Shown here one piece after another: positions 2,570 through 48,976 of a DNA stretch of 64,000 nt (position 1 is its first letter; each line of letters starts with the position of its first letter). This stretch comes from Escherichia coli (lineage in GTDB: Bacteria; Pseudomonadota; Gammaproteobacteria; Enterobacterales; Enterobacteriaceae). The notes beneath the pieces were generated by a model. The model did not search any database. It had not been told where the DNA came from and saw only the letters and a list, made by a program, of their open reading frames with translations. The DNA lies in the NCBI RefSeq assembly GCF_036507355.1, contig NZ_AP027877.1. The stretch is one strand, 5' to 3'. The translations under genes and the position numbers were made by a program.

Positions 2570-4196
2570 TAGGTTTCACTTTCGGAATATAGATTGAAAA
2601 TAAGGTACCGCAGGGATCATTATCTTCGAGAGTGATAACACCACCGCAGCGCGTTACGTAGCTGGCAATCAAGTACAACCCAATGCCATGTTCACCGGGC
2701 TCGTCAGCACGCGTACTGACCCCCTGCTCAAATATTTTGTCTCGTAGAGACTCTGGAACGCCGCAGCCCTGATCGGCGACTTCAATCACCACATCATCGC
2801 CTTCATCGCTGAGGAATAATTCAACGATCTTGTTTCCTTCATCGCTACGCAGGCTGGCTTCGAAGGCGTTATCAAGTAAATTTCCCACAATGGCGGCAAA
2901 CTCGGTGCTATCCAGTCCTGGCGGCAGTTGCGAAAGCTGGCTACCGGGGACGATGATCATTTTTAGCCCCAGTTCGCGGGCGCGCTGCACTTTACCAAAA
3001 AGCAGCCCCGCCACCTGGCGATCGGCAAACGCCTCGCGCAGGCTGTCAATAAGCTGTTGCTGGGCCTGAGACTCCCCCTGCACCATCGCCAGCACGCGAT
3101 CATACTCTTTCATCTGCAACAGACCATTGAGCGTCGACATCCAATTGAGATGCTCGTGTCGCAATGTACGAAGGCTCTCGACGTATTGTTTTATTTGCGT
3201 CAGTTGCGCATTGAGGGTGGAAATTTCGTCTTTACTACGAAAGCTGATAATGGCCCCCAGCAAATCATCACCTGAACGAATAGCTTCCCGATTGGCAATA
3301 ACGCTCAGACCGTTAAAGTTAGCCACCACATCCTGACGTTTTTCATCAATCTGTTCGGTAAAGAAATCGGCGGGCCTGACCACTTCAGCAATGGGTTTAC
3401 CCAACCATTGCCGTCCGGGGGAACTCAGCCCCAGCATCTTTCTTGCGTTACGATTGATGGCGGTAATGTAACCGTGCGGATCCACCGCAATCAGCCCTTC
3501 ATAAACCGAACTAAACAGCGCCTCTTGCTGACGGACCACGCGTGCGATTTGCTTTGGCTCCATGCCCATCATCTGCCGACGGATATGCGCGGCCAGGAAC
3601 CACGACAGCAACATCAGAATCCCTAACAGCACGACAAACACACCTGCCATCGGTAATAAAAACTCAGCCCGCCAGCTATCGATTTTACTCACCAGGTAGC
3701 CAATCGACACCACGCCGATGACTTTTCCATCGTCATCAAAGATTGGCGTTTTGGCGCGCATCGCCATACCCATTGACCCTTTCCCGGTAATGAAGTAGCT
3801 CTCCCCTTTCTCCAGCGCGCCCTGTTTGGTGAACTGCATAGGATAACCAATTTTCTCCGGATTAGGATGGTAAAGGCGGATCGAGTGCCGGTCGCCAATC
3901 ACCACATAATCAAAATCGGTATCTCTTTGTAATTTGTTAGCGATGGTCGCCAGCCGTTTGTAGTCACGCGTTTTCACCGTAGAGATGACACTGTCATTGG
4001 AGGCAATAATTTTCGCCTGATTCATTGCCATGTCGCGTACATGAAGCGTTAAATAGTCCTCAAAACTGGCCGTAAAATATTGCGCCAGGGCTGCAATGAC
4101 AAATATTGAGAACACCAGAATCAGCAAAAAGATACGCAGCGGAAATGCCAGTCTTTGGAAAAATGCAAACTGTTTATTCTCGTTAAGCTGCAACAT
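2538..4196 (-). CDS. dpiB: Sensor histidine kinase DpiB (CitA)
   Basis: ORF 2538..4256; start trimmed to the internal Met (MLQLNENKQFAFF...) matching the recalled DpiB N-terminus; histidine kinase motifs in the C-terminal half. Confidence 0.9.
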   Translation of the reverse strand: MLQLNENKQFAFFQRLAFPLRIFLLILVFSIFVIAALAQYFTASFEDYLTLHVRDMAMNQAKIIASNDSVISTVKTRDYKRLATIANKLQRDTDFDYVVIGDRHSIRLYHPNPEKIGYPMQFTKQGALEKGESYFITGKGSMGMAMRAKTPIFDDDGKVIGVVSIGYLVSKIDSWRAEFLLPMAGVFVVLLGILMLLSWFLAAHIRRQMMGMEPKQIARVVRQQEALFSSVYEGLIAVDPHGYITAINRNARKMLGLSSPGRQWLGKPIAEVVRPADFFTEQIDEKRQDVVANFNGLSVIANREAIRSGDDLLGAIISFRSKDEISTLNAQLTQIKQYVESLRTLRHEHLNWMSTLNGLLQMKEYDRVLAMVQGESQAQQQLIDSLREAFADRQVAGLLFGKVQRARELGLKMIIVPGSQLSQLPPGLDSTEFAAIVGNLLDNAFEASLRSDEGNKIVELFLSDEGDDVVIEVADQGCGVPESLRDKIFEQGVSTRADEPGEHGIGLYLIASYVTRCGGVITLEDNDPCGTLFSIYIPKVKPNDSSINPIDR

Positions 4197-4256
4197 TGTT
4201 TTCCTTGCGGGTTGTCCCGAGCCTCTTTGACGGATGTAATTAAAATGTTGAATCAA

Positions 4257-4575
4257 AATACATAGATATTAATTATAATCGTGGCAAATTTTATTCATTA
4301 AATCAATTAAATCACTTAAACCTGCGGGTCATTTCGTAATTACATTAATTAAAAAACTTAAAACCATTAAATAAATAAAAAACCACTAACTCTATGTGAA
4401 ATAAATCAAAATTTCACGCCAAAATACTCCTTAGGATGTATAGCGAAAGGAGAAAAAGATATACCTCGATCACCCCCCTTTCTCCCAAGTGAAAATAAAA
4501 GGTTATCAGTTTGCAACATTGAACAACATTCGTTGCAAATCGATAACAACATGCACCTTCAGGATACTATTTATT
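4257..4575. promoter_or_regulatory. AT-rich divergent control region between dpiBA and citCDEFXG
   Basis: About 320 bp of strongly AT-rich DNA between two divergent starts; DpiA-dependent control of citC is established knowledge; exact sites not mapped here. Confidence 0.5.
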
Positions 4576-12235: not shown

Positions 12236-12382
12236 TCATCTGATTTACAAAACACGCTAATTTGTCTTCCATAAACCAAGGCGATTAAGATTTATACATA
12301 ATGCGCTGCATTGAGGAATTCCCTGAATGTGACGCAAATCACTTCAAAGAGTGAGCAACAGTCAGTATCATCATGTGAGTTA

Positions 12383-12418
12383 AACCCTCGCCGCCTGACG
12401 GTGAGGGTTTTCTTTTGG
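12383..12418 (+). terminator. Probable rna terminator hairpin
   Basis: AACCCTCGCCG...CGGTGAGGGTT imperfect inverted repeat followed by TTCTTTTGG. Confidence 0.5.
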
Positions 12419-12464
12419 GTATGTTTATCTGCGACACTCGCAGTACCGACGACATGGAGTAAAA

Positions 12465-17371: not shown

Positions 17372-17742
17372 CTATACTTCCTCCGTGTTTTCGATGAGAT
17401 GTAAGGTAACCAATTTTTGCCGATTCGGCTAATGCGTTTCCATTATCAAATCGATAAGTTTTACCTTACAACCTTCGTAAGACAACTTTGTGAACTTTGC
17501 ACCGCCAGCGGCGATAAAAAGTAAAATGGCCCCCTTTCCAGGTGACCGTGTAATCTGAACTACCCTTTGGTATCTTCAGCGCCTGCCTGCAGGCAGAGGT
17601 GTTGCCCTTACAAATGCAACAACGACATGGATTACAACACCCTCATAAACAAAGGGCAATCACCTGATCTAAGCTCTTACCTATGACAGTGATAGGTTAT
17701 GCCTTTTACTCGACTTTTGCACTGACTGAAAAGGACAAATTA
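17372..17742. promoter_or_regulatory. Divergent ahpC / dsbG promoter region (OxyR-controlled ahpC promoter expected here)
   Basis: 370-bp gap between divergent starts; OxyR regulation of ahpCF is established knowledge; site not mapped from sequence. Confidence 0.45.
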
Positions 17743-45846: not shown

Positions 45847-45885
45847 TGCTAACGTCAGATTGTTGACAAAGTGCGCGTCGTTCAT

Positions 45886-45984
45886 GCCGGATGCGGCGTG
45901 AACGCCTTATCCGGCCTACAAAAATCTTGCCAATTCAATATATTGCAGGACCATGTAGGCCTGATAAGCGTAGCGCATCAGGCA
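45886..45984. repeat. REP/BIME-type palindromic units between fepA and entD
   Basis: GCCGGATGCGGCGTGAACGCCTTATCCGGCCTAC and GTAGGCCTGATAAGCGTAGCGCATCAGGCA are typical E. coli REP sequences in opposite orientation. Confidence 0.7.
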
Positions 45985-46011
45985 GTTTTGCGTTTGTCAT
46001 CAGTCTCGGAT

Positions 46012-46641
46012 ATGGTCGATATGAAAACTACGCATACCTCCCTCCCCTTTGCCGGACATACGCTGCATTTTGTTGAGTTCGATCCGGCGAATTTTTGTGA
46101 GCAGGATTTACTCTGGCTGCCGCACTACGCACAACTGCAACACGCTGGACGTAAACGTAAAACAGAGCATTTAGCCGGACGGATCGCTGCTGTTTATGCC
46201 TTGCGGGAATATGGCTATAAATGTGTGCCCGCAATCGGCGAGCTACGCCAACCGGTGTGGCCTGCGGAGGTATACGGCAGTATTAGCCACTGCGGGGCTA
46301 CGGCATTGGCCGTGGTTTCCCGTCAACCGATTGGCGTTGATATCGAAGAAATTTTTTCTGCGCAAACAGCGACCGAATTGACAGACAACATTATTACACC
46401 AGCAGAACACGAGCGACTCGCAGACTGCGGTTTAGCCTTTTCTCTGGCGCTGACACTGGCATTTTCCGCCAAAGAGAGCGCATTTAAGGCAAGTGAGATC
46501 CAAACTGATGCAGGTTTTCTGGACTATCAGATAATTAGCTGGAATAAACAGCAGGTCATCATTCATCGTGAGAATGAGATGTTTGCTGTGCACTGGCAGA
46601 TAAAAGAAAAAATAGTCATAACTCTGTGCCAACATGATTAA
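46012..46641 (+). CDS. entD: Enterobactin synthase phosphopantetheinyl transferase EntD
   Basis: ORF 45871..46641 trimmed to MVDMKTTHTSLPFAGHTLHFVEF...; the longer ORF would read through the REP elements. Confidence 0.9.
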   Translation: MVDMKTTHTSLPFAGHTLHFVEFDPANFCEQDLLWLPHYAQLQHAGRKRKTEHLAGRIAAVYALREYGYKCVPAIGELRQPVWPAEVYGSISHCGATALAVVSRQPIGVDIEEIFSAQTATELTDNIITPAEHERLADCGLAFSLALTLAFSAKESAFKASEIQTDAGFLDYQIISWNKQQVIIHRENEMFAVHWQIKEKIVITLCQHD

Positions 46642-46762
46642 TTGACAACATCTGGTACGATTCGCCCGCAGCCATCACTGACTGCGGGCGAAAGTGTAAA
46701 GCAGGTGCCTTACCACTCTGACCTGACAACCGGATATGCGGGGATTGCTCCCCGCACAACGG

Positions 46763-46915
46763 CTACTTCTTCGGTTCGTAAGCGAGAACAGCCTTAAACT
46801 CAATATTACGTTCCTTTACGGTGAACTCACACAGCGAGTCTCCGACCAGAAGCGTAAATCCCAGCACCGTCAAACACAGCACTATGACTGCCACAAGGGC
46901 ATATTTCGTCAGCAT
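46763..46915 (-). CDS. hokE: Hok-family type I toxin, copy 1 (50 aa)
   Basis: [50 protein letters not shown]; GGAGG Shine-Dalgarno 8 nt upstream of the ATG. Confidence 0.85.
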
Positions 46916-46954
46916 GTTTATATTGCCTCCATGCGAAGAAGGGACTACCATCCG

Positions 46955-47020
46955 AGTTGTTGAGGCTCGGAGTGGCAGCCCCAGGATTGATAGAAATATC
47001 TCCTGGGGCTTCATCTTTCC
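46955..47020 (+). ncRNA. Expected Sok-type antisense RNA of hok copy 1 (coordinates approximate)
   Basis: Inferred from hok/sok architecture: antisense RNA overlapping the leader and upstream ATG of the hok mRNA; no promoter or ends mapped. Confidence 0.25.
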
Positions 47021-47265
47021 AGACCTCAGAGTTAACCTGAAACCGGAAAGCTTCAGGCACCCGCCGTTATCTTACCCTTCCTTAGCAAAATAGCTGTTTA
47101 TTTATACAGTGAATCCTGTTTCGGACTTCTGTCGGCAAAACTCATCATTGCTCTTAAAACGAAATCGCCCGCAGCCATCACTGACCGCGGGCGAAAGTGT
47201 AAAGCAGGTGCCTTACCATCCTGACCTGACAACCGGATATGCGGGGATTACTCCCCGCACAACGG

Positions 47266-47418
47266 CTACTTCTTCGGTTCGTAAGCGAGAACAGCCCTGA
47301 ACTCAATATTACGTTCCTTCACCGTAAACTCACACAGCGAGTCTCCGACCAGAAGCGTAAATCCCAGTACCGTCAAACACAGCACTATGACTGCCACAAG
47401 GGCATATTTCGTCAGCAT
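47266..47418 (-). CDS. Hok-family type I toxin, copy 2 (50 aa, K41R relative to copy 1)
   Basis: [50 protein letters not shown]; same SD context as copy 1. Confidence 0.85.
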
Positions 47419-47457
47419 GTTTATATTGCCTCCATGCGAAGAAGGAACTACCATCCA

Positions 47458-47525
47458 AATTGTCTGGTTTGGAGTGGCAGCCCCAGGGTTGATAGAAATA
47501 TCTCCTGGGGCTTCATCTTTCCAGA
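47458..47525 (+). ncRNA. Expected Sok-type antisense RNA of hok copy 2 (coordinates approximate)
   Basis: Same inference as for copy 1. Confidence 0.25.
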
Positions 47526-47848
47526 CCTCAGAGTAAACCTGAAACCGGAAAGCTTCAGGCACCCGCCGTTATCTTACCTTTGCTTAGCAAAATAGCTGTT
47601 TATTTATACAGTAAGTCCTGTTTCGGACTTCTCACTCCCCATTTGATCAACTGAAGCTGAACCCGTTTTTTTCTGCATGCCTCAATCGTCAAAATTCTTC
47701 GCCACCAGCCAGCCGTGCCATAACTTGTCACATTGCAAAAGTAGCCAATTTGCTTCAGTCACCATCACCAAAAAAAGAAATATTCCAGAACTTCCGCATC
47801 TCGCCCAGCCGCTCCGACTTCTATACTGAATAGAAAACGCCAACATAA

Positions 47849-48976
<1,128 letters not shown>

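Follow-up and report, generated by a model that had tools for sequence, protein, structure and literature searches.

The closest described relatives of the locus considered here are hok/sok of plasmid R1 and hokE/sokE of Escherichia coli, the latter a LexA-regulated (SOS) type I toxin-antitoxin system (PMC9040746; PMC11951105). In R1, ribosomes must read the frame mok, upstream of the toxin gene, as far as the hok Shine-Dalgarno (SD) sequence or beyond; what counts is that mok is translated, not its product Mok, and five stop codons upstream of the hok start abolish toxicity (PMC9841398). A recent preprint found 10% of Hok genes to be grouped in islets, with 2-6 copies separated by less than 2 kb and formed via local duplication; it covered the Hok coding sequence only and states that Mok is not reliably identifiable (bioRxiv 10.1101/2025.08.07.668861). 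Here we analysed a stretch of 64,000 nucleotides (nt) of E. coli DNA (contig NZ_AP027877.1, assembly GCF_036507355.1; hereafter the window), which carries two hok-type genes on its minus strand. A preliminary description of the window had pointed to mok-like upstream reading frames that differ between the two copies. Our best explanation is that the region consists of two tandem copies of the known hokE/sokE locus and holds no new element, that a 1-nt insertion or deletion (indel) in a hairpin loop shifts the upstream frame as part of common natural variation, and that this frame is a by-product; we assign a probability of roughly 0.75 to this explanation.

Two tandem hokE/sokE units and the loop indel between them

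The two toxin genes lie between open reading frames (ORFs) that match entD (45871-46641, plus strand) and ybdK (47858-48976, plus strand), the site at which related genomes annotate hokE twice. They form part of direct repeats (46662-46960/47165-47463 and 46964-47130/47466-47632) that are 95-96% identical at a spacing of 503/502 nt. Both encode proteins of 50 amino acids (aa) that score well above the cut-off of 22 bits for Pfam family PF01848, as expected of small toxins of the Hok/Gef family, and Rfam model RF01794 (gathering score, 59 bits) matches both leaders over its full length on the hok-sense strand, as expected of a structured hok leader (Table 1). The order entD-hokE-hokE-ybdK is annotated in complete E. 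coli genomes up to 98.6% identical to the window (the nearest complete genome is ∼98.9% identical over 12 kb), and two annotated hokE genes occupy the entD-ybdK site in ∼24 of 60 evenly spaced E. coli genome records (∼40%). Further, each copy is accompanied by a perfect LexA box (CTGTTTATTTATACAG), and these two boxes are the sole matches to CTGT-N8-ACAG within the window; thus, both toxin genes should be SOS-inducible.

The toxin itself is well preserved. The two hok genes of the window differ by five synonymous changes and one conservative non-synonymous change, and hok is intact in every one of the 36 Escherichia hokE copies that made up our census. The ratio of non-synonymous to synonymous change (pN/pS) was 0.12 among these copies and 0.28 in the wider family, and Hok is under purifying selection.

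Each hok AUG is preceded by a leader of ∼150 nt with three predicted hairpins, H1, H2, and H3. To examine their pairing we used an alignment of 68 distinct leaders (alignment A2), comprising 21 from the window and E. coli strains, 5 from representatives of other Escherichia species, and 42 from other Enterobacteriaceae retrieved by means of HokE. The pairing of H1 (predicted fold, −15.6 kcal/mol) and of H3 was backed by covariation: H3 was 90.4% paired across the alignment, compared with 31-53% when its 3′ partners were slid, with 6 pairs changed on both sides and 112 compensated cells, a result reached by none of 500 shuffles. H2 was 86.7% paired in the same 68 leaders, yet it is nearly invariant.

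The single-base gap between the two copies falls in the loop of H3, which reads CCTCAACAA in copy 1 and CCAGACAA in copy 2, and the stem below it differs compensatorily (CCGAG/CUCGG in copy 1 and CCAAA/UUUGG in copy 2). Of the 24 differences between the copies over 469 columns, 7 lie inside the 24 columns of the H3 apex (29% versus ∼4% elsewhere; binomial P 1.5e-4). The 8-nt-loop (−1) allele is widespread: a 34-nt probe centred on the short loop matched 1119 of 5426 complete E. coli genomes without a mismatch (100% identity), the +1 allele being present in 2725 of the same genomes, and the 8-nt loop also occurs in O157:H7 and in E. whittamii. The copy-2 loop with one base added reads CCCAGACAA. 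Overall, the system is an already known one, hokE/sokE, in tandem duplication, and the frame difference is real and common allelic variation that arises from the loop indel.

Upstream reading frames and translational coupling

In agreement with the preliminary description, the upstream ATG of copy 1 (47014-47012) is in frame with hok and opens an ORF of 83 codons (46763-47014, minus strand) that is continuous with the toxin gene, and the equivalent ATG of copy 2 is put out of frame by the 1-nt length difference, since it lies 98 rather than 99 nt from the hok ATG. The same description had the copy-2 frame stop just before hok; an early stop does exist, although its exact place is a TAG at 47450-47448, 29 nt before the hok ATG. 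It had also named an ATG at 47562 as the start of an in-frame ORF of 98 codons, of which the ORF stands but the start codon does not, being a GTG.

Judged from the aligned sequences, the upstream frame is not conserved as protein, as had also been proposed. Among the 36 Escherichia copies, the distance from this ATG to the hok ATG is 98, 99, or 100 nt, owing to indels at two sites, the H3 loop and a segment of H2 that reads GGAGAT or GGACGAT. Four frame states result: 83 codons in frame with hok (16/36 copies), 62 codons in the +1 frame, ending inside hok (9/36), 22 codons (8/36), and 17 codons, ending at an in-frame TGA (3/36). When the eight distinct open in-frame alleles were compared over their 33 upstream codons, all substitutions were non-synonymous (pS 0.000, pN 0.058). 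Outside Escherichia, the position of the upstream ATG in alignment A2 reads ACG, ACA, AAG, or GTG; most relatives from other genera lack the ATG.

What is conserved in the leader can be accounted for by RNA pairing and by the antisense gene predicted on the opposite strand. We placed the sokE transcripts by transferring the ends of the K-12 annotation (b4835, −103 to −44 from the hok ATG) to the window. The signs of a convergent Sok gene visible in the DNA are promoter-like hexamers (copy 1, TTGCCT 46923-46928 and TACCAT 46946-46951, with a 17-nt spacer; copy 2, TTGCCT 47426-47431 and TACCAT 47449-47454) and a terminator-like hairpin with a U tract. Each part of the predicted SokE has its counterpart in the leader. 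Its 5′ tail is the reverse complement of the loop and 5′ arm of H3, its terminator stem is that of H2, and its U tract UUCAUCUUU is that of GAAAGAUGAA (GAAAGATGAA), the segment that holds the “mok” ATG. Similarly, the −10-like TACCAT has its reverse complement in the conserved GGATGGTAG and the invariant GGATGGTA of the H3 3′ arm. Every conserved leader piece thus has a non-coding explanation, and the upstream reading frame is therefore best regarded as a by-product. We propose that the leader outside the H3 apex would be held constant by constraints other than protein coding, namely the pairing of H1-H3, the sok promoter, and the sok terminator. The DNA of the H3 apex, which would also encode the single-stranded 5′ tail of SokE, is the fastest-diverging part of the locus, and a 1-nt indel in its apical loop would move the upstream ATG from one frame to another while leaving Hok unaffected.

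Several observations weigh against this explanation. The ends of the sok transcripts are carried over from the K-12 annotation, and the consensus scan gave no sok promoter at its threshold. The leaders of alignment A2 are related sequences, so the covariation counts overstate independence. Relaxed or diversifying selection is one reading of the clustering of differences in the loop, but a mutational hot spot or recombination between alleles could produce it as well. Finally, all 26 Escherichia leaders of the alignment keep the ATG at −99, henceforth ATG(−99), with GAGG 9 nt upstream, so this may be a real start codon, although the group has little depth and the predicted Sok U tract maps to the same site.

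The effect of the frame difference on toxin synthesis would depend on whether ATG(−99) is used. In copy 1, an SD-preceded ATG opens a frame that crosses the hok start, whereas in copy 2 the frame of the same ATG ends 29 nt short. If the ATG is used, then according to the R1 paradigm ribosomes on copy 1 would cross the hok SD and AUG in frame, whereas those on copy 2 would be released at the UAG, 15 nt before the hok SD. Copy 2 might accordingly be translationally uncoupled and silent, with copy 1 as the sole expressible toxin gene. This would be consistent with the R1 findings on premature stops (PMC9841398) and with the observation that, in 12 of 12 two-copy genomes sampled, at least one copy keeps its upstream frame across the hok start; in addition, the O157:H7 copy that bears the −1 allele also has L18P in the Hok helix. 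However, hok is intact in 8/8 copies with the −1 allele and in 3/3 copies with the TGA allele, with the low overall pN/pS given above, and the −1 allele is old and common, as its distribution in E. coli and E. whittamii indicates. Moreover, two of eight single-copy strains (L012 and L013) have a truncated upstream frame only, and a role of ATG(−99) in driving hok translation has to be presumed for every hokE copy. We therefore regard a silent copy 2 as possible but doubtful.

Alternatively, hokE might have no functional mok. Both upstream frames would then be accidental, hok would be read directly from its own strong SD after refolding of the mRNA, or not at all, and the two copies would be alike in coupling. 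Several features argue for this. The site of the R1 mok SD reads GGGG in Escherichia hokE, is always predicted to be paired, and has no ATG, GTG, or TTG 5-13 nt downstream. The GAGG of ATG(−99) is likewise buried, within H1 (probability unpaired, 0.03-0.17), although the ATG itself is open in the prediction. By a crude detection of SD sequences, an SD-preceded upstream ORF reaching the hok start was not found in ∼35 of 50 relatives, and the hok SD itself, GGAGG (47433-47429 in copy 2), is invariant in alignment A2 and about half unpaired in the predictions. On the other hand, the predicted SokE is clear of the hok SD and AUG, and without an upstream ORF Sok would be limited to mRNA decay or refolding; a start homologous to that of R1 mok (GAGG, 7 nt, ATG) is present in ∼10 Klebsiella and Kluyvera relatives; and the folds are predictions. 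We hold a hokE without mok as a tentative possibility at most.

A further way in which the copies could be alike is that copy 2 keeps its coupling by another route. A ribosome terminating at UAG 47450-47448 might cover the anti-SD sequence (−27 to −23) and so free the hok SD, or ribosomes might re-initiate at the in-frame AUG 47454-47452 and continue across the hok start. The geometry would suit either event, with AUG-G-UAG at 47454-47448, an anti-SD sequence CCUUC, and the hok SD at 47433-47429; a ribosome reaches ∼11-15 nt 3′ of its P site. The conservation of Hok in carriers of the −1 allele is also in line with retained coupling. However, the local hairpin that contains the hok SD is weak (−5.0 and −5.7 kcal/mol, no better than shuffles), so there would be little to unmask, and AUG(−36) has no SD, its conservation being explained by the sok −10 box. 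This route is purely inferential, and we consider it unlikely.

That the 98-codon ORF is the true mok of copy 2, its frame restored by another start, is very improbable, although the ORF is open and in frame with hok. As judged from the conserved −10 hexamer (47576-47571; TAAGAT/TAGAAT, here TAAGAT) and the start of the Rfam model, its GTG would occupy about nt 5-7 of the transcript, within the 5′ tac element, which leaves no space for an SD, and the full-length fold pairs it with the 3′ end. In copy 1 and K-12, this GTG opens 77 codons in a frame other than that of hok, and we rejected it as a start. Lastly, tandem repeats at 95% identity are prone to mis-assembly, and the preliminary description had allowed that resequencing might remove the 1-nt difference, but a sequencing or assembly error is refuted by the occurrence of the exact 34-nt allele in 1119 complete genomes and by the compensatory stem substitutions that accompany it.

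A separate candidate, the universally conserved ATG at −36/−32 (GGATGKTAG), was rejected as unsupported as a real mok start. No SD precedes it, and in Escherichia it stands in a different frame with respect to hok than in other genera; its conservation is accounted for by the sok −10 box and the H3 3′ arm.

Other features of the transcripts and the locus

The features of the region are collected in Table 1. A consensus promoter scan of 46600-47900 found zero sigma-70 sites at its threshold, and the hok and sok promoters were therefore inferred from the alignment and the K-12 annotation only. The full-length hok transcripts would be 404 nt (copy 1) and 403 nt (copy 2), with minimum free energy (MFE) folds well below those of shuffled sequences (z −9.0 and −8.5). 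In both the MFE and the centroid folds, the two transcripts are predicted to form a 5′-3′ closure of the tac/fbi type, in which GGCGGGUGCCU pairs with AGGCACCUGCU. The 3′ hairpin of copy 1 lacks a U tract because the duplication boundary falls directly after the stem. Two adjacent differences between the copies lie in the 3′ untranslated region (46712-46720 versus 47215-47223), giving GAGUGG in copy 1 and GGAUGG in copy 2; the GAGUGG segment pairs with the H3 5′ arm (CCACUC) in the full-length fold of copy 1, a pairing that is weaker in copy 2. In Escherichia hokE, the interval from the hok SD to the ATG (46925-46916 and 47428-47419; columns 153-156 of alignment A2) is longer by four bases, at 10 nt compared with 6 nt in most relatives, and this longer spacing may weaken direct initiation at hok.

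Table 1. Predicted and annotated features of the two hokE/sokE units in the window
Feature	Coordinates	Strand	Basis or remark
hokE copy 1 (entD-proximal), 50-aa Hok toxin	46763..46915	-	ORF; Pfam HOK_GEF PF01848, 34.0 bits; orthologous position called hokE by the Prokaryotic Genome Annotation Pipeline (PGAP)
hokE copy 2 (ybdK-proximal), 50-aa Hok toxin	47266..47418	-	ORF; Pfam HOK_GEF, 33.3 bits; K41R relative to copy 1
hok mRNA leader copy 1, predicted 5′ end GGCGGGUGCC to hok AUG	46913..47065	-	Rfam RF01794, 86.5 bits at 46907-47062; alignment A2
hok mRNA leader copy 2	47416..47567	-	Rfam RF01794, 80.2 bits at 47410-47564; alignment A2
Hairpin H3 copy 1, Sok-target hairpin, 16 bp and one bulge, 9-nt loop CCUCAACAA at 46965-46957	46941..46982	-	Fold −26.2 kcal/mol, z −5.7
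Hairpin H3 copy 2, same 16 bp, 8-nt loop CCAGACAA at 47467-47460, 1-nt deletion	47444..47484	-	Fold −20.3 kcal/mol, z −4.1
Hairpin H2 copy 1 (GCCCCAGG/CCUGGGGC)	46978..47009	-	Fold −19.4 kcal/mol, z −4.6
Hairpin H2 copy 2	47480..47511	-	Fold −18.0 kcal/mol, z −4.2
Upstream ATG copy 1, 99 nt before hok ATG (46915), in frame	47012..47014	-	SD-like GAGG 47027-47024, predicted paired inside H1
Equivalent ATG copy 2, 98 nt before hok ATG (47418), 22-codon ORF 47448-47516	47514..47516	-	SD-like GAGG 47529-47526
TAG stop of copy-2 upstream frame	47448..47450	-	29 nt before hok ATG; 15 nt before hok SD; 4 nt after in-frame ATG 47454-47452
GTG opening 98-codon in-frame ORF of copy 2	47560..47562	-	Start codon GTG; in 5′-terminal tac element of transcript
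Predicted sokE copy 1, 5′ tail GUUGAGGCUC, then terminator hairpin and UUCAUCUUU	46959..47018	+	Ends transferred from K-12 sokE; sequence; fold
Predicted sokE copy 2, 5′ tail GUCUGGUUUG	47462..47520	+	Ends transferred from K-12 sokE, as for copy 1
fbi-like element copy 1 (AAGGCACCUGC), complementary to transcript 5′ end	46701..46711	-	MFE fold of 404-nt transcript, z −9.0
fbi-like element copy 2	47204..47214	-	MFE fold of 403-nt transcript, same closure, z −8.5
3′ hairpin copy 1, without U tract, then AAUCGUACC	46662..46691	-	Homologous to copy-2 terminator; alignment, fold
Terminator hairpin copy 2, then U-rich tract UUUCGUUUU	47165..47194	-	Hairpin followed by U-rich tract
LexA box CTGT-N8-ACAG upstream of copy 1	47094..47109	.	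Pattern match
LexA box CTGT-N8-ACAG upstream of copy 2	47596..47611	.	Pattern match

Insertion sequences (IS elements) recur at the hokE locus, with IS150 in the leader of the second copy (strain DETEC-P622), IS421 between the copies (2017-02-2CC), and IS186 after hokE (K-12); their coordinates in the records that bear them are 2768-4137 (L015), 2640-3752 (L017), and 3008-4352 (L002). In some strains (L014 and L016), entD is replaced downstream by oxidoreductase genes of the short-chain dehydrogenase/reductase (SDR) type. Elsewhere in the window, other Rfam matches above the gathering score were the rnk leader (12311-12419, plus strand, 124.9 bits) and STnc70 (17516-17609, minus strand, 45.3 bits), and a match to ES036/CssrF (45921-45962, plus strand, 40.5 bits) falls within the listed entD ORF, close to its 5′ end.

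Antitoxin tails, annotation, and comparison with known systems

The divergence of the H3 apex also bears on the specificity of the antitoxins. The predicted SokE tails of the two copies, GUUGAGGCUC and GUCUGGUUUG, would form stronger duplexes with their cognate mRNAs (−51.4 and −46.3 kcal/mol) than in the crossed combinations (−31.0 and −36.7 kcal/mol). In each of the 12 two-copy genomes sampled, a small set that is not phylogenetically independent, 2-6 edits within 13 nt separate the tails, and the difference persists even where whole 304-nt units differ by only 4-6 edits. It is conceivable, though we would not favour it at present, that the H3 apex and SokE tail form a hypervariable “address” kept different by selection, so that each SokE would control its own hok mRNA and the duplication would comprise two orthogonal SOS-inducible modules; gene conversion would homogenise the rest, and the shifts in the mok frame would be collateral. 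Tail divergence is compatible with selection for antitoxins that do not cross-react, and it fits a mutable loop with shuffling of alleles equally well. If selection were indeed responsible, the locus would show how duplicated type I modules avoid cross-talk. The described hok islets resemble the window in their tandem copies, and the Ibs/Sib systems resemble the predicted SokE tails in that the antisense RNA differs between copies. Han and colleagues reportedly found in 2010 that each Sib RNA recognises its own Ibs mRNA only.

The frame variation has practical consequences for annotation. Database products from the HokE region have 50, 62, 73, 78-80, 83, or 97 aa and names that range from “HokE” to “Regulatory peptide MokC” (one 83-aa entry), and the choice of start codon at the hokE locus is clearly inconsistent between annotation pipelines. 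Similarly, ORFs of 90 aa (46821-47093, plus strand) and 118 aa (47239-47595, plus strand) run antisense to the leaders, and in many genomes PGAP calls the orthologous antisense ORF a “hypothetical protein” and “frameshifted” wherever leader indels occur. A Pfam search with the 90-aa and 118-aa ORFs returned no match, and, as they are broken by the same indels, we treated them as probably spurious. None of the HokE-extension or antisense-ORF calls reflects a conserved protein. Our finding is therefore a caution for annotation and, at the same time, a natural experiment. E. coli populations hold every possible state of the upstream frame of the hokE leader together with an intact toxin gene. The activity of chromosomal hok loci has long been doubted, and natural hokE alleles could be used to probe whether the R1 rule, by which mok is read to the hok SD, applies at such loci.

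Compared with K-12 hokE/sokE (b4415/b4835), the window has the same position next to ybdK, a near-identical leader, a Hok that differs at one residue, and the same location of sokE. In contrast to the two intact copies of the window, which are free of IS elements, K-12 has a single hokE with IS186 19 nt after the hok stop codon. The K-12 upstream ORF is in frame, at the 99-nt spacing, and the loop there has a third sequence, CCCGAACAA. In K-12 mokC/hokC and mokB/hokB, which belong to other Hok subfamilies, the upstream frame likewise extends Hok in frame at its N terminus, as it does in copy 1, but by fewer residues. A text search of the literature for mokE, mokC, mokB, and mokA returned Monascus monacolin genes only.

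The R1-type plasmid systems share with the window the Rfam leader family RF01794 (87.2 bits, compared with 86.5 and 80.2 bits in the window), the Hok family, and an antisense RNA directed against the leader. They differ in that R1 hok/sok is a plasmid system of post-segregational killing whereas hokE is chromosomal and SOS-controlled, and in that R1 H1 carries a larger insert than H1 of hokE. In R100 (parB), mok starts within the 5′ arm of H3 (GAGG, 7 nt, ATG), 58 nt upstream of hok, and encodes a 70-aa Mok in the +1 frame (PMC9841398). At the corresponding SD positions (46982-46979 and 47484-47481) the window has GGGG, with no ATG, GTG, or TTG within 5-13 nt, and the only upstream ATG with an SD in front of it is found at the foot of H1, 98 or 99 nt from hok. 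Thus, the upstream ATG of hokE and the R1 mok start are not homologous in position. The Klebsiella and Kluyvera relatives mentioned above have GAGG followed by ATG at the R1 site, in frame 0 or frame 2. Where R1 and most relatives have GAGG, the GGGG of Escherichia hokE converts a C·A mismatch of the H2 helix to a C-G pair (columns 93 and 64 of alignment A2). This same change causes loss of function in R1, where it is known as A106G (PMC9841398). In hokE this G is compensated in H3 by a change of U to C, the column pair 93/132 being AU in 38 and GC in 29 sequences of the alignment.

The comparison with R1 mok that the preliminary description had suggested therefore gave a mixed result: the position of the mok start is not shared, but the same natural 1-nt flip of frame is found. 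The canonical R1-type segment with 58-nt spacing (R100, NC_002134.1, 365-423) is present in 2694 plasmids, and a variant in 111 plasmids (NZ_CP128973.1, 294-351) has a loop shorter by 1 nt, a spacing of 57 nt, and an in-frame Mok-Hok of 71 aa, with an identical hok coding sequence. This flip lends support to the established view, in which only the translation of mok counts and the peptide itself is irrelevant.

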